Below are positions 1 to 21,677 of a stretch of 22,509 bases of DNA, one piece after another. Origin of the DNA: Acidimicrobiales bacterium. GTDB taxonomy: Bacteria; Actinomycetota; Acidimicrobiia; Acidimicrobiales; JAJPHE01. How positions within the stretch are numbered: position 1 is the stretch's first letter; each line of letters starts with the position of its first letter. The notes under the pieces are model-generated. The model worked only from the letters and a program-made list of their open reading frames with translations. It was not told where the DNA came from and did not search any database. The stretch is taken from positions 1 through 22,509 of the forward strand of contig DASRBO010000075.1 of the NCBI GenBank assembly GCA_035653595.1, given 5' to 3'. Both the position numbers and the translations under genes were made by a program.

Positions 1-622
1 GGCGAAGGTCCTCGTACCGCAGCTCGATGTAGCGGTCGGGGAACGCCCTTGCCTCGGTCGCCCCCACGACGTGGGCCCGCCACATGAGAGCCGCCGCCGC
101 TGCCGAGCGAGGGGCCCACGATCTGCCCCAGCTGCGGGCGACGTCTACCAGGCTGGTCACCACGCTCCGTGGGTCGCGGATGATATGGATGTAGAGGGCC
201 CCGGGCACGACTCGCTCTATGTAGGGGACGACCAGACTGTTCGACGGCGTCTTCTCGACCACGGCCCGGGTCGCCGGGGCCGCCGACATCACCCGGTCCA
301 CGATCGGCTGGAGGAGGCCGGCCAGCGCTCTCTGCACCTCGGCCTCGGTCAGACAGGCTGGGAGCCCGACCAGGCGGTCAGGAGGCGCACACCCCCTGCT
401 GAGGCTGTCCACCGCGGCCGACACCTCGGCTCGCTGGCGGTCCCAGGTTTGCAGCAGCGGATACACATAGAGGGCGAAGAGGTGGGGCTCGGGCATGGTG
501 GCGACGAGCGGGTGGCTGGCCAGGAGGTGCTGGAGCCAGGTCGTGCCGCTCCGGGGCGCGCCGAGGACGACCACCATCCGGGGTGAGCCGGGCTCGGGGG
601 TCGCGTCGGTCACGTCCGGCAT
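1..622 (-). CDS. Sulfotransferase family protein (PAPS-dependent). It is 5' complete, and its C-terminus runs off the window start.
   Basis: Manual reverse-complement translation from the ATG at 622 gives MPDVTDATPEPGSPRMVVVLGAPRSGTTWLQHLLASHP...IHIIRDPRSVVTSL...YIELRYEDLR. The 5'-PSB P-loop-like motif (PRSGTTW) and the 3'-PB motif (RDPRSVVTS) are typical of cytosolic-type sulfotransferases. It is missing from the ORF track because it runs off the edge. It lies tail-to-head with the methyltransferase upstream on the same strand. Confidence 0.75.
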   Translation of the reverse strand, partial: MPDVTDATPEPGSPRMVVVLGAPRSGTTWLQHLLASHPLVATMPEPHLFALYVYPLLQTWDRQRAEVSAAVDSLSRGCAPPDRLVGLPACLTEAEVQRALAGLLQPIVDRVMSAAPATRAVVEKTPSNSLVVPYIERVVPGALYIHIIRDPRSVVTSLVDVARSWGRSWAPRSAAAAALMWRAHVVGATEARAFPDRYIELRYEDLR

Positions 623-665
623 CGGACTGGTCTCTACCCGGTGACGTGGGGTCAGCGAAGGTCTC

Positions 666-1318
666 CTAGTGGAACTCCGCCATCACCTGGCCGCGAGGGT
701 GGTTCCAGTCGCCGATATAGCGGAGGTCCCAGCCACTGGCAGCCGCGAACAGCTCGAGGTCCTCCCGCCTATACCGGAAGGTCCCGTGGTCGTGGGACTC
801 CGCCGGGTTGTCGAAATCACCGAGGGCGGGGAAGAACGTGGCGAAGCATCGGCAGTCAGGAGCGTAGGCCCGTAGTTTCGTCAGGCAGTCCACGATCGGA
901 TCAGCCGTGAGGTGGGTGAACAGGGATGGGCCAAGGCGTAGTCAGGTCGCTTGGTGAAGAGGTCGAACTCGAAGGAGCCGGAGACGACGAACTCCGGGCG
1001 CCTCTCGTCCTCTAAGCCGGCGGGAAGCTCCTCCCGTCGGCCGAGCTGGATCAGTTCGGCCTCCTTGTCGATGCCGAGGTAGTTGCCCGGTTCGAGGTAG
1101 GGGATGAAGTGGACCCCGCCCCGGAGCGAACCGCAGGCGATGTCGAGCAACACATGATGCGGGGCCAGGCCCTGGCTCACCAGGAACTCGAACTGAAGCT
1201 TGCCGATCTCGTCCCACAGGCCGCCCACGTAGGCCCGGTGCCCCAGGGCGGCGATGCCAGCCGGGCCCTGCTCGCTCAGCCTTCGGCGGCACAGAGCGTG
1301 CGCCACCCTCGTCCTCAT
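666..1318 (-). CDS. Class I SAM-dependent methyltransferase, interrupted by an apparent -1 frameshift near 921-930.
   Basis: The N-terminal frame is the tail of the 881-1792 ORF, starting at the Met at 1318: MRTRVAHAL...LLDIACGSLRGG...YLGIDKEAELI...FDLFTKRPDYALAH. This carries the Gly-rich motif I and the acidic post-I motif. The C-terminal part continues in another frame (the 666-893 ORF, extended upstream): SLFTHLTADRIVDCLTKLRAYAPDCRCFATFFP. The frame switch falls in a C-run (cccatccctg, RC of 921-930). Confidence 0.6.
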
Positions 1319-1548
1319 CTTCACCACGGTGTCAGTTACGGCGCGCCGGCCCGGATCTTGCGGTTGGAGGGCCAACTTTATTGAGGGGGGAGCCGGCCGG
1401 GGTGACCCACCGTCGCCAACCCTCACGCCTGGAGGGCCTGCCCCGCCCGTGGGGAGACCGGCCGGCTCGATGGACGTAGGGCTCGATGCTGATGTAGGGA
1501 CAGCCGCTGGAAGGAACTTCGGCGGTGCCCGGATAACATCGACCGACG

Positions 1549-2742
1549 ATGAGAGTCCTTCTTGTGTCGGACTTCGTCTTGCCGGTGCGAGGAGGCTTGG
1601 AGGTCTACGTCGCCAATCTGGCAGCGGAGCTGTCGGCCCGAGGTCACGAAGTCCACATCGCCACCTTGACCGACGATCCCGAGCCGCAGGCGGGCGTCCG
1701 GTTGCACACCGTCCGGTCATGGTCCTCGAAGCTGATCTCCCATGCGGACCCCGATCGGCCCTTCGCCGTCCCTGTTCCCGACTTCCGGTCACGGGCCGAC
1801 CTTGAGCGAATCGTCCGGTCCACTCAGCCAGACGTCGTCCACGCCCACACCTGGTTGGGGTGGTCGCTGCGCTCCAGGACCGACACCCCCGTGGTGATGA
1901 CCGTCCATGACTTCGCCCCGATCTGTCAGCTGAGGACCCTCTGGCGCCCCGAGGGCAGGACGTGTGCCGGCCCGAGCTACCTCGATTGTCTGAGGTGCGG
2001 AGCGGCGTCGATGAGCCCCCTCCGGTCGCTCGGTCTCGCCTCGGCGACCGTGGCCGGGCGCCACCGGATGCGGCCCTCCGCCCTCATGGTGCTGAGTCGC
2101 TGCATGCAGACGACCCTGGAGCCGTACTTCGACATGCCGATCGAGGTGATACCTGGCTTCGTGAGCCCTCAGCCGGACGGATCAGGTGTGGCGGCCCAGT
2201 TGCCTCCGGGTCGTTTTGCCATGTTCGCCGGCGACCCCGGGAGGCACAAGGGCCTCGACCTGCTGCTGGACATTTGGAGGAACGATCCCCCTGCGGGCCT
2301 CGATCTGGTGGTGGCCAGCACCCGGGCATCCGAGCTTCCCGTCACCCCGGGCGTCCACCTGCTTCGGCTGACCCCTCAGCAGATGCCGTCGGCCTGGTCC
2401 CGCGCCACCGTCGCCCTGGTGCCCTCCCGCTGGAAGGAGGCGTTCGGGCTCTCCGCCATAGAGGCGCTATCCGCCGGCACGCCGGTCATCGCCAGCGACT
2501 GCGGGGCCTTGCCGGAGTCGGTGGAGTCCGGCAGGAACGGCCTGGTCGTCGCGCCGCAGGACAAGCTGGGCTGGATCCGGGCCATTGCCTCCGTAGTCGA
2601 GGACGGTGGGCTCCACCGGCGACTCGCCGACGGCGCCCGGGCCAGTGCCGCCCGGTGGGCACCGACGACGGTGGTTCCGCAGATCGAAGCGGTGTACCAG
2701 CGAGTTCTGCAACGCCGCCGCGCTCAGCCAGCAACCGTGTGA
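1549..2742 (+). CDS. Glycosyltransferase family 4 (GT-B fold, retaining).
   Basis: 397 aa. The N-terminus is MRVLLVSDFVLPVRGGLEVYVANLAAELSARGHEV. The C-terminal half carries the EAFGLSAIEALSAGTPVIASDCGALPESVESGRNGLVV EX7E-type GT4 signature. GC3 is high. Confidence 0.85.
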   Translation: MRVLLVSDFVLPVRGGLEVYVANLAAELSARGHEVHIATLTDDPEPQAGVRLHTVRSWSSKLISHADPDRPFAVPVPDFRSRADLERIVRSTQPDVVHAHTWLGWSLRSRTDTPVVMTVHDFAPICQLRTLWRPEGRTCAGPSYLDCLRCGAASMSPLRSLGLASATVAGRHRMRPSALMVLSRCMQTTLEPYFDMPIEVIPGFVSPQPDGSGVAAQLPPGRFAMFAGDPGRHKGLDLLLDIWRNDPPAGLDLVVASTRASELPVTPGVHLLRLTPQQMPSAWSRATVALVPSRWKEAFGLSAIEALSAGTPVIASDCGALPESVESGRNGLVVAPQDKLGWIRAIASVVEDGGLHRRLADGARASAARWAPTTVVPQIEAVYQRVLQRRRAQPATV

Positions 2743-2926
2743 GCTGAAGCTGTCTCAGCGCAGCCGTCGCACCCTCTTCGAGCCCTTCCGGAACCGCCGC
2801 TCCGTCGGACGGCCCACCTATCATTTGCCGACCGCCGGGCGGGTCGGCGACCGGGGAGGAGGAGCGATCAACCCCACACCAGCGGCTATCAGCCGCCCGG
2901 GCCTGATCCGATCGCGCTCCGCCGGT

Positions 2927-4744
2927 GTGTTGACAGCCGTCACCCTGCTCGTGGGCGCCGCCGTCCTCCGGGTGGCCTACTCGATGGCGGAGAGGTCGTC
3001 CGGCCATGGCCACTTCGCCGTGTTCTGGGCTTCATATCTCCTGGTCGTAGGGGCCGTCGCCGCCTACGCCTGGTTCCGGGCTTCGAACCGCCTGGCAACG
3101 CTCGCCCTCCTCGGGGGCTTCGGCATATACACCTACCTGCCCAAGCTCCTGATGAGCCTGCACGGACCCGTCTACTACGACGAGTACGGGCACTACCGGC
3201 ACCTGCAGGACATCCTGGCCACCCACTCGGTCAACGTCGACAGCACCTATCTGCCCATCGTCAAGTACTTCCCCGGCCTCGAGCTGGTGACGGCGGCCGT
3301 GCACGAGGCGAGCCGCCTGACGACCTGGCAGGCCGCCCTGATCGTCATCGGCGCTGCCCACGTGGTGACTCTTGTCGCCGTGTGGCAGCTCGCTCTCGCT
3401 CTGCGGCTTCCCGATCGATGGGCCGTTCTGGCGGCAATAGTCTTCGCCTCGAACCCGAACTTCACCTACTTCGACACCGAGTTCGGTTACGAGTCCCTCG
3501 GCCTGGCCCTCGCTCTGGTCAGCATCGTCATGTTCGTGCGGGCTCGCCAGAGCCGCACCGCGGGGCGGGCGTGGGCCTGGACAGCCGGAACCATGCTGTT
3601 GTCGGGCGCGACCATCTTCACCCACCATGCCTCGGCCGCCTTCATGTGCGGGATCCTGCTTACGCTCGCTCTGGCCTTTCCTCCGCTTCGCCAGGACCGC
3701 CGGCAGCGGGCGACCGTGATCGGGCCCTGGGTCGCCGCGCTTGGTGCCACCGTCGGCCTGACCCTGTGGGTCGATCTGGTGGCGACCGGCACCTACGCCT
3801 ACATCGCCCCCCATGTCCACAACGGCCTGGTAGGCGTGTTCGACGTTTTGACCGGACAAAAGCAGGTGGTCTCCAGCGGATCCGGTCGGGTCACGGTCAG
3901 CCCCGGCCACCACCTCTTCGCCGGCGCCGGCGTCCCGATTTACGAGATCGTCTGCGCCTTCATAACACCGGTGGTGGCTCTGGCCGTGCTGGCCGGCGCC
4001 CTCATCGGCAGCTGGTGGGAGCGGGACTGGCACGACGAGATCCGGCGCCGGCTCCCGTTCCTGCTGCTCGGGCTCCTCTACCCGCTCTCCCTCCCGCTGG
4101 CCCTGACGATAAGCGGAGGGGAGACCGCCCACCGGCTGTGGACCTACGCCTACATCGGCCTGGCGCCGTGCGTCTACTGGGCGTGGCCTGTCTACCAGAA
4201 GGCCATGGCCCGGCTGCGGGTCGCTCTGGCCCCTTCCGCCGCGCTGCTTCTAGTCCTTCTCCTCGTCGCCGTGGTCGGCAACGTCGCCTCGGGGGAGGAC
4301 GTCTACTACCGCTTCCCGGGCCCGTACCTGTTCGGCACCGACACCCGGTCACACACGGCGGAGACCTACCAGCTGGCGGACTGGCTCCGTCGGCATCTGC
4401 GGCCGGGGCAGAACGTGGTGACCGACCGCGACACCGGTGAGGTGATTACCGCCTACACCCGTCTCGACACCCCGGCTCCCGCGAACACTCCGGTATACCA
4501 GCTCTACCTCCAGGGCAACCGACCGTCTCCGTCCCTGCGGCGATACCTGTCGGAGTTCGGCTTCTCGTACTGGGTCTTGGACCTGCGGATCGCCAGGGAC
4601 CGACCGGTGCAGACCCTGTTCGCCACCTACGCCGGCCCGTCGAGCGTCAACGCCTCGGCCATCCTGCAGGCGGGCCATGGCAGCAGCTTCCTGACCGTGA
4701 CCCACCGCACCAGGGACTATGAGGTACTTCGGATCTCGAGCTGA
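2927..4744 (+). CDS. Large polytopic membrane protein. It is a putative GT-C-fold glycosyltransferase or polysaccharide polymerase-like protein with a C-terminal soluble domain.
   Basis: The ORF at 2606-4744 is open from 2606, but the first 137 nt overlap the upstream GT4. The likely start is the GTG at 2927, the TTG at 2930 or the ATG at 2984, downstream of ggaggagg at about 2856. The product has more than 10 predicted hydrophobic helices. An acidic YYDEYGHY motif sits in the first extracytoplasmic loop, as in GT-C enzymes. The C-terminal domain of about 150 aa is hydrophilic. Confidence 0.65.
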   Translation: MLTAVTLLVGAAVLRVAYSMAERSSGHGHFAVFWASYLLVVGAVAAYAWFRASNRLATLALLGGFGIYTYLPKLLMSLHGPVYYDEYGHYRHLQDILATHSVNVDSTYLPIVKYFPGLELVTAAVHEASRLTTWQAALIVIGAAHVVTLVAVWQLALALRLPDRWAVLAAIVFASNPNFTYFDTEFGYESLGLALALVSIVMFVRARQSRTAGRAWAWTAGTMLLSGATIFTHHASAAFMCGILLTLALAFPPLRQDRRQRATVIGPWVAALGATVGLTLWVDLVATGTYAYIAPHVHNGLVGVFDVLTGQKQVVSSGSGRVTVSPGHHLFAGAGVPIYEIVCAFITPVVALAVLAGALIGSWWERDWHDEIRRRLPFLLLGLLYPLSLPLALTISGGETAHRLWTYAYIGLAPCVYWAWPVYQKAMARLRVALAPSAALLLVLLLVAVVGNVASGEDVYYRFPGPYLFGTDTRSHTAETYQLADWLRRHLRPGQNVVTDRDTGEVITAYTRLDTPAPANTPVYQLYLQGNRPSPSLRRYLSEFGFSYWVLDLRIARDRPVQTLFATYAGPSSVNASAILQAGHGSSFLTVTHRTRDYEVLRISS

Positions 4745-5936
4745 GAGGACGGTGACGCCAGCGCCCCCCGCCGCTTCGAACCCGCCGGACGGGGCGCTGC
4801 GGATCCTTGTCGTCGGCCCCAGCTACCGCTTCGCCAGCGGAATCTCCGCCTACACCCACCGTCTGAGCCACGCCCTGGCCGAACGCCACGAGGTGTCGGT
4901 GCTGCTGCTGCGCCGCCTGGTTCCGAGGCGCTTCTACCCCGGCTCGGGGCGGGTCGGGCACGATCTCTCCTTCCCCAGCTACCGGCGGCTCTCCCACTTC
5001 GACGGCATCGACTGGTATTGGGGCCCCTCCCTGGTCGGCGGGATCCGGTTCATGCGGCGGTCGCGCCCCCAGGTGGTGCTCTTGCAGTGGTGGACCCTGG
5101 CGGCCCTTCACACCTACCTCGCCCTGGCCCTGCTTGCCCGGCTGGGAGGGACGCCGGTGGTCATCGAGTTCCATGAGGTCCAGGACCCGGCGGAACAGGC
5201 GCTCACCGGGGCCCGGCGCCTCAACCGGTTGGGCCTGAGCCTGCTCGTGCGCTCGGCGCGGGCGGTCATAGCCCACAGCGACGAGGACCTGCGCCTGGTG
5301 AGGTCGGAGGTCGACCTGGGCCCAAGGCCGGCCGCGGTGATCGGCCACGGTCCCTACGACCATCTGGTGGGGCCGGAGGACCCCGGCGACATGACTGCGC
5401 CGCCCTCCTCCGACACCCGGCTCCTGTTCTTCGGGCTGATCCGGCCCTACAAGGGGGTCGAGGACCTCGTCGAGGCCTTCGGGCGCCTGCCGGAGGAGGA
5501 GGCCGCTCATTTCCGCCTCACCATCGTGGGCGAGACCTGGGAGGGTTGGACCCGCCCAGCGGAGTCGATACGGGCCAGCCACTACTCCGAGCGCATCCGG
5601 TTCGTCAACCGTTACGTCCCCGACGACGAGGTCGGCCGCTACTTCAGGGATGCCGACGCCCTGGTCCTGCCTTACCGACGGGCGTCGTCCAGCGGGCCCC
5701 TGAACATCGCCCTGGCCGCTGGCCTACCGGTGGTGCTCTACGACGTGGCCGCCCTGGTCAAGGCGGTCGAGGGCTACGAAGGAGCCATCATCGTGGCCCA
5801 AGGAGACATCGACGGGCTCGGGCGAGCCCTCGGCCAGGTGCGAAGCCTCGGCGGTCGCCGGTTCACTCCTCGGAGAGGTTGGGCGCCGACCGTCGGCGAG
5901 TACACCTCGTTCCTGAACGAGGTCATCGGGCGGTGA
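4719..5936 (+). CDS. Glycosyltransferase family 4.
   Basis: 405 aa. The N-terminus has RILVVGPSYRFASGISAYTHRLSHALAERHEV, and the C-terminus has YKGVEDLVEAF...PYRRASSSGPLNIALAAGLPVVLYD. The ATG at 4719 overlaps the upstream stop by 26 nt. An in-frame alternative GTG lies at 4752. The stop TGA at 5934-5936 overlaps the next gene. Confidence 0.8.
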   Translation: MRYFGSRAERTVTPAPPAASNPPDGALRILVVGPSYRFASGISAYTHRLSHALAERHEVSVLLLRRLVPRRFYPGSGRVGHDLSFPSYRRLSHFDGIDWYWGPSLVGGIRFMRRSRPQVVLLQWWTLAALHTYLALALLARLGGTPVVIEFHEVQDPAEQALTGARRLNRLGLSLLVRSARAVIAHSDEDLRLVRSEVDLGPRPAAVIGHGPYDHLVGPEDPGDMTAPPSSDTRLLFFGLIRPYKGVEDLVEAFGRLPEEEAAHFRLTIVGETWEGWTRPAESIRASHYSERIRFVNRYVPDDEVGRYFRDADALVLPYRRASSSGPLNIALAAGLPVVLYDVAALVKAVEGYEGAIIVAQGDIDGLGRALGQVRSLGGRRFTPRRGWAPTVGEYTSFLNEVIGR

Positions 5937-5944
5937 AGGTGGGG

Positions 5945-7051
5945 ATGGTCACGCCGGCCTACCCGCCGGCGGTGGGTGGAATCGAGGCCCACGTCGCCAG
6001 TCTCACCGAGGCGCTGTCGAAGCTCGGCGTCGAGGTCCAAGTGATCACGCAGGCGTCCGGGCCCCTCAGGCGCAATCCCGCCCTAGTCGAGTTTCGCCGG
6101 CTGCCGATGACCGGGGTCTACCAGTTCGCCCCCGGCCTGCTGCCGTGGACGCGACGCCACCGACGGGACTTCGATCTGTTCCACCTGCACGGCTATCACG
6201 CCGCACCGGCTGGTCTGGTCGCCCCGCTGGTGGGGGGAACACCGATCGTTCTCACCCCGCACTACCACGGCGCCGGGCACACGCGATTGGCGCGAGGCAT
6301 GCACCGGCTCTACGGGGCGGTCAACCGGAACCTGATCCGGCGGGCCCGGGCGGTCATCTGCGTCTCGAGCGCCGAAGCCGATCTGCTCGAGGATCGCTAC
6401 CCATGGGTGCGACCCAAGGTGGAGGTCATCCCCAACGCCGTCGGATCCGAGGGGTTGCTCTCCGCAGCCGCCTTCGAGACCGACAACCCGGTGGTACTCA
6501 CTGCGGGCCGGCTGGTGGGATACAAGAACACCAGGCTGGTGGCAGAGGCGGTGGCCGCCCTCCGTTCGCCTGTGTCACTGGTGGTCGCCGGAGACGGACC
6601 GGAGCGGGCCGATCTCGACGATCTCGCCCGGCGTCACCCGGCCATCGAACTGACCGGTTGGCTGCCCCGCCCCGAGCTGGACCGCTGGTTCCGCACGGCC
6701 AGCATCTTCGTGACCCTGTCAGAGCACGAGGCCTTCGGGATGTCCCTGCTTGAGGCCCTGACGGCGGGCTCGTGGGCGATCGCCTCCGACATCCCCGCCC
6801 ACAGGGAGGTGGCCGCCCTCTGCGGGGCCGAGGACCGGGTGACCTGGCTGCGGCTGCCCTGCACCGCCGAGCAGGTCGGCCGGGCCCTGGAGGACCGGTT
6901 GGCATCCGGTGGTCGCCCGCCGCCCCTTCCCAGAATCTGGGACTGGGGGGAGGCGGCCCGGCGCACGGCGGCCCTCTACCACCGGTTGGTGACCTCTCCA
7001 GAGGTTGCCAGGCCCGCCGGCGGGGTACGTGGCCGCCGTCGGGTGCCATAG
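5945..7051 (+). CDS. Glycosyltransferase family 4.
   Basis: The N-terminus MVTPAYPPAVGGIEAHVASLTEALSKLGVEVQVITQ is a classic GT4 start. LSEHEAFGMSLLEALTAGSWAIASDIPAHREV is the EX7E motif. An RBS gaaggtggg precedes the ATG at 5945. An alternative GTG at 5933 overlaps the upstream stop as GTGA, which suggests translational coupling. Confidence 0.85.
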   Translation: MVTPAYPPAVGGIEAHVASLTEALSKLGVEVQVITQASGPLRRNPALVEFRRLPMTGVYQFAPGLLPWTRRHRRDFDLFHLHGYHAAPAGLVAPLVGGTPIVLTPHYHGAGHTRLARGMHRLYGAVNRNLIRRARAVICVSSAEADLLEDRYPWVRPKVEVIPNAVGSEGLLSAAAFETDNPVVLTAGRLVGYKNTRLVAEAVAALRSPVSLVVAGDGPERADLDDLARRHPAIELTGWLPRPELDRWFRTASIFVTLSEHEAFGMSLLEALTAGSWAIASDIPAHREVAALCGAEDRVTWLRLPCTAEQVGRALEDRLASGGRPPPLPRIWDWGEAARRTAALYHRLVTSPEVARPAGGVRGRRRVP

Positions 7052-7071
7052 GGGGCCCCGCCTGAGCGGGG

Positions 7072-8604
7072 ATGGTTAAAGCGGTCAAACCTAAGATAAG
7101 CCCCCTCGGAACCGATACCTGGCGTGTGCCGGGCGATCGTTCTCTGAGGGGCGTCCGCGCCCTGGTCGCTGCCCTCGCCGCCTTGGCTCTACTGGCGTCC
7201 TCGGCCTGGGGGCTCAGCCGAGCGGCAGCCGCTCCCAAGCGGATACCGGTGAGCGGTCTGCACATCATGAACTACTACCCCTCCGACGACGGGTGGACCT
7301 TGATGTGGACGGACTACTCCCACGCCACCACCGTGTCGGACTTCCAGGCCCTGGCGTCTCTGGGGGCGAACACTGTCCGGGTCATAGTCCAGCCCTCGGC
7401 GGTCGGGTACCCGTCGGTGACCACGACCATGAGAGCCGAGTTCGACGACATGCTCGGCGTGGCGGCGGCGACCGGGCTGCAGGTGCAGCTGTCCCTGTTC
7501 GACCAGTGGGGCAACTACTCCGACATCAGCGGCTCGGAGCAGTGGGTGTCCTCGTTGCTGCAGGGCATGGGGAACGACAACATCATCGACCTGGTCGAGC
7601 TGCGCAACGAGATGCCATTGACCCCCGCCGCGATCGCCTGGGCCCAGCAGTTGCTCCCTTACCTGTCGAAGGTCCTGCCCGGGGTGCCCCGCACGGTCTC
7701 TTCCTCGGGAGCCACGGGGCTGGCTGGGGTTACCGCCCTTCTGAACGCCATTCCCAGCTCCATGTTGGACGTGGTCGATGTCCACTACTACGGCGAGCCC
7801 AGCCTGGCCTTCGCCGAGCTGACTGCTGTCAAGGCAGAAAGCGGTGGTCGGCCGGTGATCGTCGGGGAGACCGGTGAGAGCACCTATGGGACCGCATCGG
7901 GCGAGGTGGCCCAGGCCCGCTACTTCGCCATCATGGCGCAGACGACCCGAGCCCTGAACATGCCCCCGCCGGCCCCGTGGATGCTCAACGACGTCATCCG
8001 GGCGGCAGGCGAGACCCTGACCACCGGCGAGGAGTACTTCGGCCTCCGGCGGCCGGACGGGACCTGGAAGCCGGCCGCGACCATCGTGCGGGAGGCCTTC
8101 GAGGGACAGGCCGTCAGCGGGAGCGCGTTCGACACCAGCCTGCAGGCGGAGGCCAACAACGGCGGCAGCACCCTTCTGGGGGCCTGGTCCGCCTTCGACT
8201 CCGCTGACGGCCTGCCGGTGGTCACTCCTGGGATTCCGACTCCCGGGCTCCAGGCGGTCTGCTACCAGAACACCGGTGGGAGCACCTCGGACAACCCCGC
8301 TCTCGAGCAGTCGCTCCCGATCTTCACCTCGGGCCAGGAGGTCTCCGTGTCGGCCACCCTCCAGCGCACCGGGACCGGCTTCGACCAGGTGTCCATCGCC
8401 TACTACAGCGCCGGCGGCAGCTACCTGGGCGAAGCGGACTCGCCGACCGCCAGCCTCATCGGACCTCAGGAGACCCTGTCCGTTTCCACGACGGTTCCGC
8501 CCGGCGTCGCCGCCGTTGCCATCAACCTCAAGGCGGCCCACCAGTCCGGTCAGGCCTGCTGGGAGTCGACGACCATCCAGACTCCCAACCTCATCACCAG
8601 CTGA
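7072..8604 (+). CDS. Secreted glycoside hydrolase of the GH-A clan (GH5-like TIM barrel), with a C-terminal beta-sandwich (putative carbohydrate-binding) domain.
   Basis: A signal-peptide-like N-terminus reads RSLRGVRALVAALAALALLASSAWGLSRAAAAP. The putative acid/base motif is VELRNEMPL (NEP-like) and the nucleophile motif is RPVIVGETGEST. The C-terminal domain of about 130 aa has 2 Cys. The start is uncertain: the ATG at 7072 sits in an unusually AT-rich stretch, and an in-frame GTG at 7126 is an alternative. Confidence 0.65.
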   Translation: MVKAVKPKISPLGTDTWRVPGDRSLRGVRALVAALAALALLASSAWGLSRAAAAPKRIPVSGLHIMNYYPSDDGWTLMWTDYSHATTVSDFQALASLGANTVRVIVQPSAVGYPSVTTTMRAEFDDMLGVAAATGLQVQLSLFDQWGNYSDISGSEQWVSSLLQGMGNDNIIDLVELRNEMPLTPAAIAWAQQLLPYLSKVLPGVPRTVSSSGATGLAGVTALLNAIPSSMLDVVDVHYYGEPSLAFAELTAVKAESGGRPVIVGETGESTYGTASGEVAQARYFAIMAQTTRALNMPPPAPWMLNDVIRAAGETLTTGEEYFGLRRPDGTWKPAATIVREAFEGQAVSGSAFDTSLQAEANNGGSTLLGAWSAFDSADGLPVVTPGIPTPGLQAVCYQNTGGSTSDNPALEQSLPIFTSGQEVSVSATLQRTGTGFDQVSIAYYSAGGSYLGEADSPTASLIGPQETLSVSTTVPPGVAAVAINLKAAHQSGQACWESTTIQTPNLITS

Positions 8605-8609
8605 GCCAA

Positions 8610-8626
8610 CGCGCCGCTCCGGCGCG
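8610..8626 (+). terminator. GC hairpin downstream of the hydrolase gene.
   Basis: cgcgccg-ctc-cggcgcg is a perfect 7-bp stem, followed by cattctcc. It sits 6 nt after the stop at 8604. Confidence 0.4.
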
Positions 8627-8727
8627 CATTCTCCTGCCCATCGACCCGCCTGCTCAGGACTTTGGTCCCTGCCGGTTCGCCTTCGCTTAATCCGATGATG
8701 GACGCAGTTCAAACAACGGAGAGCGAT

Positions 8728-9327
8728 ATGAGACGCAGGACATTTGACATGCTGGCTACCGCCGGCGGTCTTGTGCTGATGGCCGTCCTCGCCATCGCCG
8801 GCGGCCTGTTGATGCGGGGCGCCAGCTTCGCCAACGGCCAGGTCCACAACCAGCTGGCCCAGCAGCAGATCACGTTCCCGACCGCGGCCGCCCTGGCCAA
8901 CGCCAAGCCGGGTACCGAGCTCACCCCGGCGATGGTCCCGTACCTCAGCCCGTACGCCGGCCAGCAGCTGACGACCGGCCCTCAGGCCGAGGCCTACGCC
9001 GATCACTTCATCGCCGACCATCTGGCTGCCATGCCCTTCGGCGGGGTGTACTCGAAGGTCAGCGCGGCCTCGATAGCCGCCCCGACCAACACGAAGCTCG
9101 CCGCTGAGGTCCAGACGGTGTTCCGGGGCACGACCCTTCGGGGTCTGCTGCTGGAGGCCTACGCCTTCTCGAAGTTCGGTCAGATCGCCCTCATCGCCGG
9201 CGTCTGCGCCTTCGCCCTCGCCGGGGTGATGCTGGTCCTCTCCGGGTTCGGGCTCTGGCACCTCCGCCGGGTGCCGGCTGAGCAGGAGCTGCTCGGTCCC
9301 CGCATCGCTGGTCGGGTCGCCGCCTGA
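8728..9327 (+). CDS. Hypothetical bitopic membrane protein with N- and C-terminal TM helices and a central extracytoplasmic region.
   Basis: The ATG at 8728 is preceded by ggagag 6 nt upstream. It encodes MRRRTFDMLATAGGLVLMAVLAIAGGLLM...IALIAGVCAFALAGVMLVLSGFGLW. GC3 is high. A strong terminator follows. Confidence 0.55.
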   Translation: MRRRTFDMLATAGGLVLMAVLAIAGGLLMRGASFANGQVHNQLAQQQITFPTAAALANAKPGTELTPAMVPYLSPYAGQQLTTGPQAEAYADHFIADHLAAMPFGGVYSKVSAASIAAPTNTKLAAEVQTVFRGTTLRGLLLEAYAFSKFGQIALIAGVCAFALAGVMLVLSGFGLWHLRRVPAEQELLGPRIAGRVAA

Positions 9328-9368
9328 GCAAACCCTCCCCCGACCGGACCTACCCCTAGCCCCCAGAA

Positions 9369-9410
9369 GCCCCGCCCTCGGGCGGGGCTTCGGTCGTTTT
9401 GTCCGTTCTT
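9369..9410 (+). terminator. Rho-independent terminator.
   Basis: The stem gccccgcc (9369-9376), the loop ctcg and the stem ggcggggc (9381-9388) form a perfect 8-bp GC stem. It is followed by ttcggtcgttttgtccgttctttcc, a T-rich tract. Confidence 0.65.
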
Positions 9411-9727
9411 TCCATCCCGCCCCGCCCCGCCCCGGCCGTGCTGCTTGGCCGCGAGCGGGGCGCCTGTCTCGACGCTCACATCACCAGGTCCGGGCCCGAC
9501 CACGCAGCAGCGCCCTAGGAGCAGGCCCGTCATCGGCAGAGGGCCCACGCCGGAGCCCGCTGTGGTCGACGGCGGCCACGGCGAGGAAATTTCCGCCAGG
9601 GCGCCGCAAGTTCCGAAGCCGGTCGGCGTATTAGCCACCGAACAGGCGGCCGGGGAACCGGGCGTGCGACACCACCGGGGTCGCCGAACCACCCCCTGTC
9701 GTTCGGAGCAGAGCTCAGGAGTTGGTG

Positions 9728-10603
9728 GTGCAGGTAATCGAGATCGACAGCGAGCCATACCCGACACCAGCGCAGTCGGACGGCACCTCGGTGGTCATCG
9801 ACCTCCGCGATCCGGTCACCATCGATCCGTTCCCAACGTCGGAGCAGGTCGATGCGCCCCCCAACTACGGCGAGGCTGGCCCCCCCCAGGTCAGCCTCGC
9901 CGTATTAATGCCCGTGTTCAACGAGGCCCGGACGGTCCGTCAGGCGGTCCAGGACGTGTTGTCCGTCCACTACCCCTGTCCGATGGAGCTGATCGTCGTC
10001 AATGACGGGAGCACCGATGAGACCGCCTCGATCCTGGCGTCGCTGAGCGACGATCGACTGACCGTCCTTCACCACGCCGTCAACCGGGGCAAAGGTGCCG
10101 CCCTGAAGACGGCGGCCTCGGCGACGACGGGCGCCACCCACGTGGTGCCCTTCGACGCCGATCTCGAGTACTCGGCCGCCGATCTCCTCCGCCTGGTGGA
10201 TCAGGTGGTGGATGGCCGAGCCAACGTCGTGTTCGGCTCCCGCCGTTCGGGGCGCTCGGTGCCCCACCAGAACCGGCTCTACGCCATCGGCAACACGGTC
10301 ATGACCAAGGTCGCCAACACGCTCTACGGTTCACGCTTGACCGACCTCCACACCTGCCTCAAGCTCGTGCCCGCCCGGTTGTTCGCGCAGCTGCCCCTTC
10401 TCGAGGAGGGGTTCGGTCTGGATACCGAGCTCACCGCCTGGCTGCTGCGCAGCGGCGCCCAGCTGCGGGAGGTCCCGATCTCCTACCGCAGCCGCAGCCG
10501 GGCCGAGGGCAAGAAGATCTCGTGGCGGGACAGCCTGGTCTGCTTCCACCTCCTCTTCCGCATCCGGCTGGAGGACGCTCCGGTCCTCGGCGGCGCCGCC
10601 TAG
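9728..10603 (+). CDS. Glycosyltransferase family 2, polyprenyl-phosphate sugar synthase-like (DPM1/GtrB/Ppm1 type), with a Pro-rich N-terminal extension.
   Basis: The motifs are LAVLMPVFNE, LIVVNDGSTDET, a DADLEY DXD-type motif, and FGSRRS. An RBS aggag lies at 9716-9720, and candidate starts are the TTG at 9722 and the GTGs at 9725 and 9728. About 55 Pro/Asp/Glu-rich residues precede the catalytic domain. Confidence 0.8.
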   Translation: MQVIEIDSEPYPTPAQSDGTSVVIDLRDPVTIDPFPTSEQVDAPPNYGEAGPPQVSLAVLMPVFNEARTVRQAVQDVLSVHYPCPMELIVVNDGSTDETASILASLSDDRLTVLHHAVNRGKGAALKTAASATTGATHVVPFDADLEYSAADLLRLVDQVVDGRANVVFGSRRSGRSVPHQNRLYAIGNTVMTKVANTLYGSRLTDLHTCLKLVPARLFAQLPLLEEGFGLDTELTAWLLRSGAQLREVPISYRSRSRAEGKKISWRDSLVCFHLLFRIRLEDAPVLGGAA

Positions 10604-10728
10604 CGCTGAGAACGCGACACCAGACGACCATGGCCCCTGGTATCCTATTTACGGTTACGCTAAAGTAAGTAGTACCGGGCGTCACCAAGGGGCGCCCTTC
10701 TGGGGAGCCTGGGGAGGATGTGGCGACG

Positions 10729-11187
10729 ATGAGGCGGGCGGCGCTGGTGTTGGCGGGATTGGCCGGGGCCGGGCTCAGTGCCTGGCAGCTGGCCCCGGCC
10801 CAGGGGGCTCCCTCGCGCGGAATCTGCACCGCCGCCGCCGGCGCCCCCTGCTCGTTCACCAGCGTCGCCGTCATCGGGGGCACGAACGAGGAGGGCGTCA
10901 TCTCTTCCCTCCAGGTGGGCACCTTCACCGTGGCCGTGGTCACCGCCGGCCAGCCCCGCAACCGTCACGGTGAGGCCCTGGGCTACCAGGGCCAGATCTG
11001 CAGCGTCTCCATCGCCAACGGCGGGCCTCCCAAGGGCAAGCCCAGGACCGACGCCGAGGGTCAGCCCATCAGCTGGACGGGGACGGGCGCCGGGGTGGTG
11101 TCGGGGTTGTTCATCCAGGGCTGCACCTACTCGGTGACCGTCAACAAGGGCGGCATCGGCACGGTGACGGTCGGCCAGACCAACTGA
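10729..11187 (+). CDS. Small secreted hypothetical protein with a signal peptide and 4 Cys.
   Basis: MRRAALVLAGLAGAGLSAWQLAPAQGAPS... has a typical n/h/c signal and an AxA-like site. ggggagga lies upstream. GC3 is high. The gene is preceded by an AT-rich stretch at about 10630-10680. Confidence 0.55.
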   Translation: MRRAALVLAGLAGAGLSAWQLAPAQGAPSRGICTAAAGAPCSFTSVAVIGGTNEEGVISSLQVGTFTVAVVTAGQPRNRHGEALGYQGQICSVSIANGGPPKGKPRTDAEGQPISWTGTGAGVVSGLFIQGCTYSVTVNKGGIGTVTVGQTN

Positions 11188-11194
11188 AGCGTCG

Positions 11195-12541
11195 CTAACC
11201 GTCGCCGGCGCCGGCGGCCAGCTCCTCGAGCATGAGTTTGCGGGCCGGCACCCCGTCGTCGAAGCGGAGGGCCTTGACCAGGTGGACGATGGTCCCCTTC
11301 TCCGGCTCCGACTCGAAGCGGACGTGGTCCACCAGGGCATGCATCAGCGCCACCCCCCGGCCGTGCTCGGCATCCATGGCCGCCATGGTCGGGCGCAGGG
11401 CCACGTGGTCGAAGCCGTGGCCAACGTCGATGACCCGGATGTGGCAGTCGGACGGCCCGACGCTGACCGCCACGTCGTAGACGTCGCCCGGCCCCGAATG
11501 GTCGATCACGTTGGCGCAGGCCTCGGTGAGGGCCAGCTCCACCGCCGCCGAGTCCTCTTCGAGCACCCCCACCTCCGACATCGCCGCCCGGATCAGATGG
11601 CGGGTGACGGGAACGCTGAGGCGATCGCGGGGCAGCTGGAGGGACAGGGTGAAGCGGAAGCCGTTGGCGCGGGAATCGCTCTCGTCGGCGTCCAGGGGAA
11701 GGATGCCGGTCGCCGGCCAGGCGTAGCGGTGGGACGTCAACCGGCCGGTGGGCGTGCCCAGGTCTACGACCAGGCGGCACTGGGGGTCACCGAGGGCGAT
11801 GCGCTCGTCGAGGGTCACCTCGGCTCCGCCGGCCGCCCGGGCCCCGAGCCCGCCGGCCAGGGCGGAGGTGAACCGGCACAACCCCGGGGGAGGTGACGGT
11901 CCGAACGGACAGCGCCGGACCCCCAGCACGACCCGGCTGCGGCTGCGGGAGACCACGTGGAAGTCGCCGCCGAGCTCGGCCTCGGTGGCGATCAGGCTGT
12001 CGGCCACCGCCATCGGGTCCGGCGCCAAGGGCGCCTCGTTCGCCCGGCGCTGGGCGACGGTGGCTCCCGCCAGGGCGGCCGCTTCGTCCATCGCCATCCC
12101 TGAGGTCATGTGGGCGGCCATGAGGGCCGCTACCGCCGCCGGCTGACCGGCCGGGACCAGGGCGGGATCGGCGCTGACGGGGTCGAGGTTGGCCTCCGGA
12201 GCCCGGGCGACGGCCAGGCCCACCCGTACGCCGGGGCTGGACCCGTGGGCGGAGAACAGGCTCCTGGCGTCGTCCTGGGCCCGGGTGAGGCCGGCGCCGA
12301 CGCTTTCACCGGGCAGGTCGCCGGCGGGCAGGTGGCGCAGCTCCAGCCGGGCCAGCTGCTCCTCCCAGTCGAAGGAGACCCAGATCGGTCCGGGGTCCAT
12401 CTCCGTCAGGGCCTCGTGGACCAGAGGCCGGGCCAGCTCGGCCACCGCCGGCTCGATGGCGTGGCGGGCCAGATGCGCCGTGACCTCCTGCTCGAGGCGG
12501 GTGACGGCCCCCCCGACTCTCGTGTCTACGCACCACTCCAC
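11195..12541 (-). CDS. Multidomain sensor/kinase. It has an N-terminal degenerate GHKL-like domain, a central V4R-like domain, and a C-terminal RsbW-type anti-sigma regulatory factor (HATPase_c) serine kinase domain.
   Basis: The C-terminus reads LALTEACANVIDHSGPGDVYDVAVSVGPSDCHIRVIDVGHGFD...EHGRGVALMHALVDHVRF (N, G1 and G2 boxes). The middle has RCPFGPS...LCRFTSALAGGLGA...ALGDPQCRLVVDLG, which matches V4R Cys/Gly motifs. The N-terminus has ARPLVHEALTEMDPGPIWVSFDWEEQLARLEL, which is GHKL-like without the Asn. The GTG start at 12541 is preceded by the gaaggtgagggg RBS. Confidence 0.65.
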   Translation of the reverse strand: MEWCVDTRVGGAVTRLEQEVTAHLARHAIEPAVAELARPLVHEALTEMDPGPIWVSFDWEEQLARLELRHLPAGDLPGESVGAGLTRAQDDARSLFSAHGSSPGVRVGLAVARAPEANLDPVSADPALVPAGQPAAVAALMAAHMTSGMAMDEAAALAGATVAQRRANEAPLAPDPMAVADSLIATEAELGGDFHVVSRSRSRVVLGVRRCPFGPSPPPGLCRFTSALAGGLGARAAGGAEVTLDERIALGDPQCRLVVDLGTPTGRLTSHRYAWPATGILPLDADESDSRANGFRFTLSLQLPRDRLSVPVTRHLIRAAMSEVGVLEEDSAAVELALTEACANVIDHSGPGDVYDVAVSVGPSDCHIRVIDVGHGFDHVALRPTMAAMDAEHGRGVALMHALVDHVRFESEPEKGTIVHLVKALRFDDGVPARKLMLEELAAGAGDG

Positions 12542-12624: not shown

Positions 12625-13020
12625 CTAGGGCTCCCCGGGCTGCTCCGGCTCGATGTGCATGGCGGCCTCCTCGGGGAGCAGCCCATCGGTGTCGTCCTCG
12701 GCCAGCTCGGCCACCTCGGTCGCTTCGTCGTCGGCCAGCCCACCCCCGTCGGGTGCCAGCAGGCGGCCCGGTCGCACCTCGGCGCCCCTGGCTTCCGGCT
12801 GCTCCCGCCGCAGCCGGTCCTCGAGGCGCTCGGGCATCCGCCCCTCGGCCGGGGTGGTCCCGTAGTCGTCGGCGGCCACCGGATGGTCCCGCGGCGGGGC
12901 CAGGCCCTCGACGGCGGACTGGTCGTCGATACCGGGGGGCTGGTCCTCGACCGGGGGGAGGCCCTCGGCCTCGAGATCGGTGAACGGGGGGTCCTGGGAC
13001 GCTCGTCTCATCGCCGGCAT
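12625..13020 (-). CDS. Highly acidic, low-complexity (intrinsically disordered) hypothetical protein.
   Basis: 131 aa, Asp/Glu/Pro-rich, with EDRLRREQPEARGAE. GC3 is about 90%, which is diagnostic of true coding in this genome. gagggtaggg lies 5 nt upstream of the ATG at 13020. It sits between the Fur-family gene and the kinase on the same strand. Confidence 0.5.
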   Translation of the reverse strand: MPAMRRASQDPPFTDLEAEGLPPVEDQPPGIDDQSAVEGLAPPRDHPVAADDYGTTPAEGRMPERLEDRLRREQPEARGAEVRPGRLLAPDGGGLADDEATEVAELAEDDTDGLLPEEAAMHIEPEQPGEP

Positions 13021-14193: not shown

Positions 14194-14988
14194 ATGAGCC
14201 TTAGCGAAAAATCCGCCGAAGCCCCGATGGAGCTGGACCTGCTCCCGCTGATCGACCGGCTTCCCGCCTGCTCCTCGGGCCTGGCCTACCTCTACTGGTG
14301 CCTGGACCACCTGGTGGAGGCCCTGGGCCTCGACGACGCCGTGCTGACCATGGAGCACCCCGCCCTGGGGCTGCAGATCTTCCGGGCCAAGAAGAGGCCG
14401 GCGGCGGAGGAGGTGGAGGGCGAGCGGGTCGACAAGCCCGGCCTGTACCTGTTCCCCGACCCCCTCAACGACGAGCACAAGCGGGCGGTGGCCCAGCTCT
14501 GCGACGTGGCCCTCACCATCGAGCTGGCCCGCCACGACGCCTCCAACGACGCCCTCACCGGCCTGCTCAACCGGCGGTCCTTCTCCGAGGCCATCAACGG
14601 GTTCAGGGCCCACAGCGAGCGCCACGGCATGGGCTTCTGCCTGGCCCTGCTCGACGTGGACGGTCTCAAGGTGATCAACGACACCATGGGCCACTTCGAG
14701 GGCGACCGCCTCCTGCGGATCACCGGTTCTGAGCTGCGCCGGTGCCTGCGGGCGGGCGACGTGGCCGCCCGGATCGGCGGCGACGAGTTCGCAGTCCTGC
14801 TGGCCAACGGCACCGCCGAGGCCGCCGACCGGCTCAAGGGACGACTGCAGGAGTCGGTCAGCCGGGCCCTCAACCGACCCATGGCCTTCTCCGTGGGGGC
14901 GGCGGTGGCCCCGACGGAGTCCCTGAACGCCGACGAGCTGTTCCGTCTCGCCGACGGCCGACTCTACGAGGACAAGCGACGGAGGTGA
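14194..14988 (+). CDS. Diguanylate cyclase (GGDEF domain) with an N-terminal domain of about 110 aa of unknown type. It has an intact A-site and I-site.
   Basis: DALTGLLNRRSF...LLDVDGLKVINDTMGH...RCLRAGDVAARIGGDEFAV. The RxxD I-site (RAGD) lies exactly 5 residues before GGDEF. There are no TM segments. Confidence 0.85.
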   Translation: MSLSEKSAEAPMELDLLPLIDRLPACSSGLAYLYWCLDHLVEALGLDDAVLTMEHPALGLQIFRAKKRPAAEEVEGERVDKPGLYLFPDPLNDEHKRAVAQLCDVALTIELARHDASNDALTGLLNRRSFSEAINGFRAHSERHGMGFCLALLDVDGLKVINDTMGHFEGDRLLRITGSELRRCLRAGDVAARIGGDEFAVLLANGTAEAADRLKGRLQESVSRALNRPMAFSVGAAVAPTESLNADELFRLADGRLYEDKRRR

Positions 14989-21072: not shown

Positions 21073-21677
21073 CGGACGGACGGCCTAAAGTCGTCTTCGG
21101 TCAATGGGCCCGGTCAATGCCGAACGAAGCGGCCGGCTTGGAGAGGTGCAAGTCGGCGGCCCTGGTGGCATTGGTCCAAGTTGAGGCCTCTCTACTGCCT
21201 GGCTGGGCCGACTGGCCGCCATCAGGCGACGGCGAACTCCCAGGCCCACCTTCGGGTTCCAATAGTCGTCTCCCGAGGTCACGCACTGAGGTGTCGTTAG
21301 CCGCGAGCATGACGCGGAGCAGTGTCCGGGCGCGACGAAGGACTCCCGATCTATCCGGGCTCGCGAGCCTGGGTGCGGGCAGCCTTCTGCCCACGGTGGC
21401 CTGTTCACCGCGCCTCCAAGTCGGCGCCCGCTCGTTACGCCGCTGAGCTTCAATATGGATCAAGCCGGACGCCAGTGGCAAGGGAATCCGTCGGTAGGGT
21501 CGTTCCGGGCCATGGCCCGACTTTGCCGGCCACCGGAGCAGGCCAGCGATTCGTGGCCCCAGGCTGGGCACCGATCTTCGTGACGGTCAGGTCTCACCGC
21601 CGCGCCGTGACTATTGGTGTCATCCCTCATCTCGAATAGTCCTCAATAGGACATATGGGCGTGCCGAAGTAGTCCAG

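Follow-up and report, generated by a model that had tools for sequence, protein, structure and literature searches.

Which glycan does an actinobacterial locus make when a sulfotransferase and a methyltransferase gene stand divergently to an operon of glycosyltransferases and a secreted hydrolase, and does it represent a new kind of pathway? We addressed this question for an uncultured member of the Acidimicrobiales, in a stretch of 22,509 nucleotides that constitutes the entire 22.5-kb contig of a metagenome-assembled genome (MAG) with a GC content of about 69% and is called the window below. A preliminary annotation from the letters of the DNA, the sequence-only reading, had proposed that the first 11,187 positions encode a sulfated and methylated surface glycan of an uncharacterised type. 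Our comparative analysis leads to a different answer for the core of this locus: we estimate the probability at roughly 70% that the segment from about 1549 to 11187 is the Acidimicrobiales version of the imp/gimB-type exopolysaccharide (EPS) system, with a methyltransferase-sulfotransferase tailoring module beside it. The locus is a variant of this known system and not a new kind of system. The expectation that the locus makes a surface or extracellular glycan and encodes a hydrolase dedicated to it is upheld by the one-to-one homology of its core to the genetically validated imp and gimB genes. The label "uncharacterised" has to be given up, since the core has a characterised homologue in imp/gimB (PMC12691653) and a sulfated, methylated EPS has already been proposed for the wps-1 cluster (PMC13390465).

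Relationship of the core to the imp and gimB genes

In Actinoplanes missouriensis, the imp cluster consists of seven genes (impA-G, AMIS_66400-66460) adjoining gimB (AMIS_66390), and imp and gimB were shown genetically (mBio 2025) to make and degrade the polysaccharide of the sporangium matrix (PMC12691653). According to this study, ImpA, ImpB and ImpF are GT4 glycosyltransferases, ImpG is a GT2 enzyme, ImpC is of the Wzx type, ImpD has five transmembrane (TM) helices and an unknown function, ImpE has 11 TM helices and an Alg6/Alg8-superfamily domain, and GimB is a GH5 hydrolase with a C-terminal galactose-binding-like domain. Third-position GC content and analysis of open reading frames (ORFs) yielded the following map of the corresponding region in the window, where PAPS stands for 3'-phosphoadenosine-5'-phosphosulfate:

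2-622, minus strand: PAPS-type sulfotransferase, N-terminal 207 residues, cut by the contig end (Sulfotransfer_3, E = 1.2e-28, and PAPS motifs)
666-1306 (ORFs 881-1306 and 666-893), minus strand: class-I methyltransferase-like gene, frameshifted (weak Methyltransf_12 match)
1307-1548, no strand: divergent intergenic region of 242 bp between the methyltransferase-sulfotransferase pair and the glycosyltransferase operon (from gene coordinates)
1549-2742, plus strand: GT4a glycosyltransferase, ImpB counterpart (Glyco_transf_4 and Glycos_transf_1)
2927-4744, plus strand: 605-aa membrane glycosyltransferase with predicted GT-C fold, ImpE counterpart (fold and homologue alignment)
4752-5936, plus strand: GT4b glycosyltransferase, ImpA counterpart (Pfam)
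5945-7051, plus strand: GT4c glycosyltransferase, ImpF counterpart (Pfam)
7072-8604, plus strand: 510-aa secreted GH5-like hydrolase with C-terminal beta-sandwich, GimB counterpart (homologues with PF00150, and fold)
8749-9327, plus strand: 192-aa protein (MP192) with two TM helices (hydropathy)
9366-9391, plus strand: intrinsic-terminator-like hairpin of 11 bp, 9 of them GC pairs, with a T-tract behind it
9722-10603, plus strand: GT2 glycosyltransferase resembling polyprenyl-phosphate-sugar synthases, counterpart of ImpG (Glycos_transf_2, 1e-27)
10720-11187, plus strand: 155-aa protein (SS155) with a signal-peptide-like N-terminus

Reciprocal BLAST between the window and the locus of A. italicus paired six proteins one-to-one: ImpA with GT4b (48% identity, 4e-94), ImpB with GT4a (35%, 3e-53), ImpE with the GT-C protein (35%, 1e-68), ImpF with GT4c (39%, 1e-55), ImpG with the GT2 (27%, 5e-11) and GimB with the hydrolase (30% over residues 60-502, 4e-59). 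Because these are one-to-one reciprocal best hits, the window core is best classified, on sequence grounds, as a distant and rearranged member of the imp/gimB family. Orthology to the A. missouriensis genes was bridged by the published disruption primers together with the A. italicus locus: the primers are colinear on Actinoplanes loci, including L045, with 0-3 mismatches and each at the expected gene boundary. Moreover, the Actinoplanes loci of our set have the same composition and order as the gimB-imp cluster, and their domain descriptions agree with the published ones (PMC12691653). The window thus resembles imp/gimB in its ImpA, ImpB, ImpE, ImpF, ImpG and GimB homologues as well as in their domain layout. 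It differs in gene order, in lacking ImpC (Wzx-type) and ImpD, in a hydrolase gene that is co-directional and lies within the operon, in two additional small envelope proteins, in the adjacent sulfotransferase and the broken methyltransferase, and in its host, an Acidimicrobiales MAG without known sporangia.

A genome scan with the GT-C alignment recovered at least 205 loci, 80 of which were analysed within 10 kb on either side of the GT-C gene, while other checks covered 81 or 84 loci. Near the GT-C gene, homologues of GT4c are present in 76/80 loci, of GT4a in 74, of GT4b in 63, of the GT2 in 57 and of the hydrolase in 43. A MOP-type flippase homologous to ImpC accompanies the core in 74/81 relatives, and the Actinoplanes loci encode an additional 330-aa multi-TM protein; neither has a counterpart in the window. 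The hosts are mostly Actinoplanes and Paractinoplanes, but also include Kitasatospora, Streptacidiphilus, a Streptomyces, Rhodococcus, a Mycobacterium, Actinokineospora, Geodermatophilus and many MAGs of Acidimicrobiia and Frankiales, with a few outlying MAGs of Chloroflexota and Dormiibacterota. The imp system has hitherto been described only as a pathway for the sporangium matrix of Actinoplanes. Since its core, made up of three GT4s, an ImpE-type GT-C protein and a GT2, in most cases with a MOP flippase and frequently with a GimB-type GH5, recurs in at least 80 other genomes, in Actinomycetota and beyond, the comparison of loci points to a pathway of general use for envelope or EPS synthesis, in which anionic or hydrophobic tailoring modules can be exchanged.

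The closest relatives of the core carry other tailoring genes beside it, namely those for TagF-like proteins, cytidylyltransferases, CDP-OH_P_transf proteins, other methyltransferases or hexapeptide acetyltransferases. This suggests that the tailoring around a constant core is interchangeable and often anionic, by sulfate, glycerol-phosphate/CDP-alcohol, methyl or acetyl groups. In one group of five loci (L084, L101, L004, L005 and L009), a conserved protein of about 670 aa with a faint "Hydrolase" match lies beside a Polysacc_synt_3 flippase, and most of these loci have glycerol-phosphate/CDP-alcohol genes (TagF-like, cytidylyltransferase, CDP-OH_P_transf), suggesting a putative teichoic-acid-like decoration of the same core glycan in this clade.

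The plus-strand genes had been taken as a single operon. This holds for the main glycosyltransferase operon, whereas the GT2 and SS155 genes probably form a second transcription unit, because the terminator-like hairpin at 9366-9391, which sits 39 nt past the preceding stop codon and ends in a T-tract, and an unusually long non-coding gap of 394 bp (9328-9721, without a match in Rfam) lie ahead of the GT2. No sigma-70 consensus was found in the divergent region 1307-1548, although such a consensus is not informative for this phylum.

Enzymes of the core and the proposed route

The prediction of a polytopic GT-C-like protein of about 600 aa is borne out by the ImpE counterpart of 605 aa, for which an alignment of 41 sequences (the window protein and 40 homologues) gave a GT-C-fold model with a predicted local distance difference test (pLDDT) score of 93. 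No Pfam GT-C model matched at threshold, and NCBIfam gave nothing usable for this protein or for the hydrolase; a Pfam scan at E ≤ 10 gave only a faint match to DUF6541, on which we found nothing in the literature, and likewise placed the protein in none of the Wzy or O-antigen-ligase families. The structures nearest to the modelled fold are STT3/AglB, DPY19 and AftA, with ArnT, PMT and PimE also among the matches, and sequence identity to the GT-C enzymes STT3/AglB/PglB, DPY19, AftA and ArnT is 10-13%. Within the alignment, D85-E86 in the first, extracytoplasmic loop is invariant, as are other residues. Unlike the oligosaccharyltransferases STT3/AglB/PglB, the ImpE family lacks the WWDYG motif at the start of the C-terminal domain (WW[DE][YWF]G; 0/41 members) and has a motif of its own, YRFPGPxxFG(S/T)DTRS, at the corresponding position. 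A canonical oligosaccharyltransferase of the STT3/AglB/PglB type was rejected on the absence of WWDYG. ImpE was proposed by its authors as a possible Wzy (PMC12691653); our model instead describes it as a predicted GT-C-fold enzyme with an AglB-like C-terminal domain and not a canonical Wzy.

All three GT4 genes that had been annotated were recovered by Pfam. Two special identities were considered for them and rejected: matches to defence-type "GT4-conflict" models are far weaker than those to generic GT4 models, and the housekeeping enzymes of mycothiol or phosphatidylinositol mannoside (PIM) synthesis are not a match either, with all equivalog models, BshA included, far below their cut-offs (MshA, 87.9 bits against 462.5). 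The locus therefore stands outside these housekeeping pathways. For the GT2, described earlier as DPM1/GtrB-like, NCBIfam matched AglJ best (99.9 bits against a cut-off of 325), together with PpgS, both below cut-off, and the top matches in the PDB were GtrB and ArnC. No TM helix was predicted in the GT2, which thus differs from GtrB and ArnC in lacking their C-terminal TM helices. Its GT2 domain spans residues 61-194, compared to 65-188 in ImpG, both proteins having an N-terminal extension of about 60 aa, and it is about 50% identical to the GT2 of 16 other loci. Encoded together with a GT-C protein, such an AglJ/PpgS/GtrB/ArnC-like GT2 recalls known pairs of a polyprenyl-phosphate sugar synthase and a GT-C enzyme (Ppm1 with mycobacterial GT-Cs, PpgS/Rv3779 and GtrB/GtrC; PMC3485146). 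The core of the window type differs from these pairs by its three GT4s, its dedicated GH5 and, in the relatives, its MOP-type flippase.

The secreted hydrolase was also correctly anticipated as GH5-like. The 510-aa protein has no Pfam match at threshold itself, but most of its homologues carry PF00150, and a profile search against the PDB retrieved GH5 mannanases, mannosidases and GH5_18 structures. Its model (pLDDT 87) consists of a TIM barrel and a C-terminal beta-sandwich, with GH5_18 structures (E about 1e-12) and mannanases as the closest Foldseek matches. N179-E180 and E266, the expected acid/base pair and nucleophile of a clan GH-A enzyme, are invariant among the homologues, and E180 and E266 correspond to the catalytic residues E174 and E261 of GimA. 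In A. missouriensis, the imp genes are required for an extracellular polysaccharide of repeat units, and GimA and GimB cut this matrix polysaccharide to oligosaccharides of 4-8 sugars and cluster with GH5_18 beta-mannosidases (PMC12691653, PMC13390465), which are the nearest characterised neighbours of the window hydrolase as well.

Taken together, the family memberships suggest a route in which the GT2 and the three cytoplasmic GT4s would assemble a lipid-linked oligosaccharide. A flippase, which in the relatives would be the ImpC homologue (74/81) and which the window lacks, would move it outward. The ImpE homologue would then polymerise the oligosaccharide or pass it to a final acceptor outside the membrane, as its fold, the D85-E86 loop motif and the genetics of A. 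missouriensis suggest, and the GimB homologue, with its conserved catalytic residues and the activity shown for GimA and GimB, would cleave the finished polymer. A cytoplasmic PAPS-dependent sulfotransferase might sulfate the lipid-linked repeat before export; we put the chance that the window enzyme acts on the product of this locus just short of even. The methyltransferase would be inactivated by its frameshift in this population, or only in its consensus sequence.

No initiating phosphoglycosyl transferase was seen in the conserved core of the related loci. Deletion of impG is mild and equals the deletion of the whole cluster, whereas all other single imp mutants have collapsed sporangia with little or no matrix, and the impE mutant, one of the most strongly affected, released just 10^2 spores (PMC12691653). 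This pattern fits ImpG as the first committed step, and an ImpG that initiates on polyprenyl monophosphate would fit both the missing phosphoglycosyl transferase and the mild impG deletion; a role as side-chain donor fits equally. A bolder proposal, which we consider distinctly unlikely as it stands, is that the ImpE family is an unrecognised GT-C branch related to STT3/AglB that polymerises or transfers en bloc an oligosaccharide built on polyprenyl monophosphate, because the initiator would be an AglJ-like GT2. Bacteria would then have an equivalent of the haloarchaeal Agl logic that is common throughout Actinomycetota, and sulfation in this MAG would yield anionic wall or matrix polysaccharides. 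The predicted GT-C fold of ImpE and the missing initiating transferase lead to concrete hypotheses, for which A. missouriensis offers a test system open to genetics.

The sulfotransferase-methyltransferase pair and rival readings

The assignment of a PAPS-type sulfotransferase stands, although only 207 of about 320 residues lie on the contig (full-length relatives have 300-345 aa). Both PAPS motifs, GAPRSGTTW of the 5'-phosphosulfate-binding loop and RDPRSVVTS of the 3'-phosphate-binding site, are kept and align with the family, and matches in the PDB include the OLS/CurM sulfotransferase domains (9e-9) and TPST (1e-4). With 923 database homologues, this family is not rare, which weakens the view that glycan sulfotransferases are rare in bacteria. 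A metagenome scan with the same protein returned only 12 distant sulfotransferases, 11 of them on short contigs. Of four neighbourhoods of its closest relatives (47-52% identity), three are glycan clusters and the fourth is a housekeeping region, and none contains the GT-C core. One combines CysQ, CysD and CysN with GT2s, another GT14, GLF and GT4, and the third, from Actinospongicola, resembles an EPS cluster and encodes several sulfotransferases. An antibiotic or small-molecule sulfotransferase was rejected in view of these glycan-cluster neighbourhoods.

The methyltransferase gene, which lies upstream of the sulfotransferase gene on the same strand at a spacing of 43 bp, did not hold up as annotated. 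A 1-nt deletion near 926-928, within the conserved DYALA(Q)SLFTHL motif, splits it into ORFs 881-1306 and 666-893. A motif-I-like sequence, LLDIACGSLRGG, is present in the gene, whose reading frame is not intact. In an exhaustive search that found 2,868 relatives, nearly all matches stop at query residue 127-128 or so, while the repaired protein aligns end-to-end with intact homologues up to the C-terminus and matches Methyltransf_12 at E = 3e-4, under the Pfam cut-off. The frameshift is common to the window and to two further assemblies of the locus, L001 and L002. Because these differ from the window by SNPs (L001) or a 2-bp indel (L002), the defect is either a recent genuine frameshift or else an error common to their consensus sequences. 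Past the deletion, the reading frame retains full homology and codon bias, and in two of the closest database homologues (P0272 and P0297) homology also drops directly past the DYALA(Q)SLFTHL motif. With the gene frameshifted, methylation of the product is unlikely as encoded, and the claim of a methylated glycan loses its support.

Despite this defect, the pair as such is a real glycan-tailoring module, because natural fusion proteins join relatives of the methyltransferase to domains of the sulfotransferase and GT2 types. In P0288 and P0286, a methyltransferase domain of the window type is fused to a sulfotransferase domain, that of P0288 being 36% identical to the window sulfotransferase, and P0360 is a giant fusion in the order sulfotransferase-GT2-TPR-GT2-methyltransferase. 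The latter is reminiscent of chain-terminating or polymerising enzymes in ABC-dependent glycan pathways. A comparable gene set has been described in the wps-1 cluster of A. missouriensis, predicted to produce a sulfated, methylated EPS with the sulfation inferred from the genes alone (AEM 2026, PMC13390465). Like the window, this actinomycete EPS locus unites glycosyltransferases, sulfotransferases, an S-adenosylmethionine-dependent methyltransferase and a glycoside hydrolase. It differs by GT2 and GT26 enzymes, canonical Wzx/Wzy/Wzz, the lack of a GT-C protein and of the GT4 trio, and sulfotransferases of the Gal/GlcNAc and heparan sulfate types. The synechan (xss) system of Synechocystis (PMC8205485) is another bacterial EPS locus with cluster-encoded sulfotransferases taken to sulfate the polymer, but with canonical Wzx/Wzy, an unrelated gene set and a host from another phylum. 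If the window product is indeed sulfated, an uncultured actinobacterial lineage of soil or sediment would join the short list of bacteria with sulfated polysaccharides.

Sulfotransferases occasionally occur beside the core in other genomes, too. A subfamily-independent hidden Markov model detected a sulfotransferase at most 10 kb from the core in only 4/84 relatives (L007, L035, L100 and, weakly, L026). In the survey of 80 loci, homologues of the window enzyme were present near the GT-C gene in 2. In L035, the gene is part of the operon, where it stands between GT4a and GT4c and where stop and start codons overlap; in L100 its neighbours include two methyltransferase domains, GT8s and an ABC exporter of the Wzt type. 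Since the core-associated sulfotransferases fall into different subfamilies, they look like independent recruitments, and by this comparison the sulfotransferase would be an occasional accessory of the core. The L100 locus (1-9914) joins an imp-type core to an ABC_tran and Wzt_C transporter, three GT8s, an RGP-type mutase, the two methyltransferase domains and the sulfotransferase; it is an ABC-dependent variant in which terminal methyl or sulfate capping is possible.

Several observations weigh against reading the locus as an imp-type system with its own sulfation. ImpC and ImpD, both required in A. missouriensis, have no partner in the window by tblastn or blastp, although they may be located off the contig. 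Identity to the Actinoplanes proteins is only 27-48%, and because the window's organism is not known to form sporangia, the biological role in Actinoplanes cannot be transferred to the Acidimicrobiales MAG. Regarding the tailoring genes, the methyltransferase is broken, and the proportion of related loci with any sulfotransferase, about 5%, is near the level of chance adjacency in sulfotransferase-rich genomes. The sulfotransferases of L007, L035, L100 and L026 belong to other subfamilies and include no orthologue of the window enzyme, nor does such an orthologue adjoin the core in any related locus. The expectation that the enzyme belongs to a glycan-cluster family was confirmed, while that of synteny with the glycosyltransferase genes largely failed.

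The pair at the contig edge could accordingly belong to a neighbouring cluster that is not seen, its right edge lying by coincidence next to an imp-type operon whose product is neither sulfated nor methylated. We take this to be a realistic alternative, if one with less than an even chance. Its relatives' GT2-based clusters without a GT-C/GT4 core, the 80/84 related cores without a sulfotransferase within 10 kb, the absence of the window-type methyltransferase from all 80 loci examined and the several sulfotransferases that Acidimicrobiia genomes can carry per cluster all agree with it. So does the contig end inside the sulfotransferase gene: every assembly extending to the left end (the window, L001 and L002, among them a near-identical 31.1-kb contig from the ENA and a Logan contig) starts at one and the same base, so that the region left of position 1 is unreadable. 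This common break suggests that a repeat, perhaps of paralogous sulfotransferases, or heterogeneity among strains occurs there. Against a separate cluster speak the divergent arrangement of the pair and the operon around a common intergenic region of 242 bp, the fact that the same core has acquired sulfotransferases of other subfamilies independently, in one case within the operon, and the visibly exchangeable tailoring modules around it.

Other alternatives concern the core itself. Its GT2 and GT-C protein might act as a lipid-carrier-based three-component decoration system in the style of GtrB/GtrC or PpgS/Rv3779, in which the GT2 makes a polyprenyl-phosphate monosaccharide and the GT-C enzyme, being neither a polymerase nor an en-bloc transferase, adds single sugars outside to a GT4-built polymer. 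All best matches of the GT2 (AglJ, PpgS, GtrB and ArnC) are polyprenyl-phosphate sugar synthases, GT-C enzymes using such monosaccharides (ArnT, AftA, PMT and DPY19) rank among the top structural matches, and a mild impG deletion would be expected on loss of a side-chain sugar. We nevertheless judge this to be on the unlikely side: the conserved core offers no other polymerase or initiating phosphoglycosyl transferase, the severe impE phenotype argues against mere decoration, and the equivalence of the impG and whole-cluster deletions also fits an ImpG that acts first. Decay of the locus to a remnant that makes no polymer, having lost its flippase and ImpD and retained a methyltransferase pseudogene, would account for the absence of ImpC and ImpD homologues despite a flippase in most relatives as well as for the frameshift in three assemblies. 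It appears quite improbable given that all eight plus-strand ORFs are intact with a strong bias in third-position GC and that catalytic or invariant residues are kept in the GT-C and GH5 proteins; the flippase may, moreover, lie off the contig. Least probable by far is a housekeeping glycolipid pathway of the PIM, lipomannan or mycothiol type. The combination of GT4s, a polyprenyl-phosphate-sugar GT2 and a GT-C protein does follow the logic of PIM, lipomannan and lipoarabinomannan synthesis, close relatives have a CDP-alcohol phosphatidyltransferase beside the GT-C gene, and AftA and PimE are among the fold matches. However, the equivalog scores of MshA, BshA and others fall far under their cut-offs, the distribution is patchy, Rhodococcus and Mycobacterium each being represented by a single species, the imp cluster is dispensable for vegetative growth of A. 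missouriensis (PMC12691653), and the core goes together with a secreted GH5 whose role is to break down extracellular matrix.

Small envelope proteins and downstream genes

The small membrane protein and the small secreted protein noted earlier are both present, the former as MP192, in which two TM helices flank an extracytoplasmic segment of about 120 aa, and the latter as the signal-peptide-bearing SS155. Neither has a match in Pfam or NCBIfam, and no homologue of either was found in the 80 related loci. With this arrangement, MP192 has a Wzz-like topology, and the protein might stand in place of ImpD or of a chain-length factor. The reported absence of Wzx, Wzy and ABC exporters was confirmed across the window and extends to about 2.5 kb past its right end on the ENA contig. 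Sweeps of the window for Rfam families, tRNAs and tandem repeats revealed nothing bearing on the locus.

From 11195 onwards, the window contains regulatory or unrelated genes, encoding HATPase_c_2, DUF5709, Fur, carbonic anhydrase, GGDEF, two LuxR-type regulators, SnoaL proteins, Band-7 and PAS-GGDEF-EAL proteins. Genes for the turnover of cyclic di-GMP thus lie downstream of the glycan locus, namely those for a GGDEF protein (14194-14988, plus strand) and for a 951-aa PAS-GGDEF-EAL protein (21675-22509, plus strand) which runs off the window and is found at 17485-20340 of L103. Two LuxR/GerE regulators and a HATPase_c_2/MetOD1-like protein (11195-12541) are also encoded just downstream, and a regulatory tie between the cyclic di-GMP, LuxR and HATPase_c_2 genes and EPS production is possible. 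Within the small DUF5709 gene, GC-rich imperfect tandem repeats of 18-21 nt occupy positions 12896-12967 on the minus strand.

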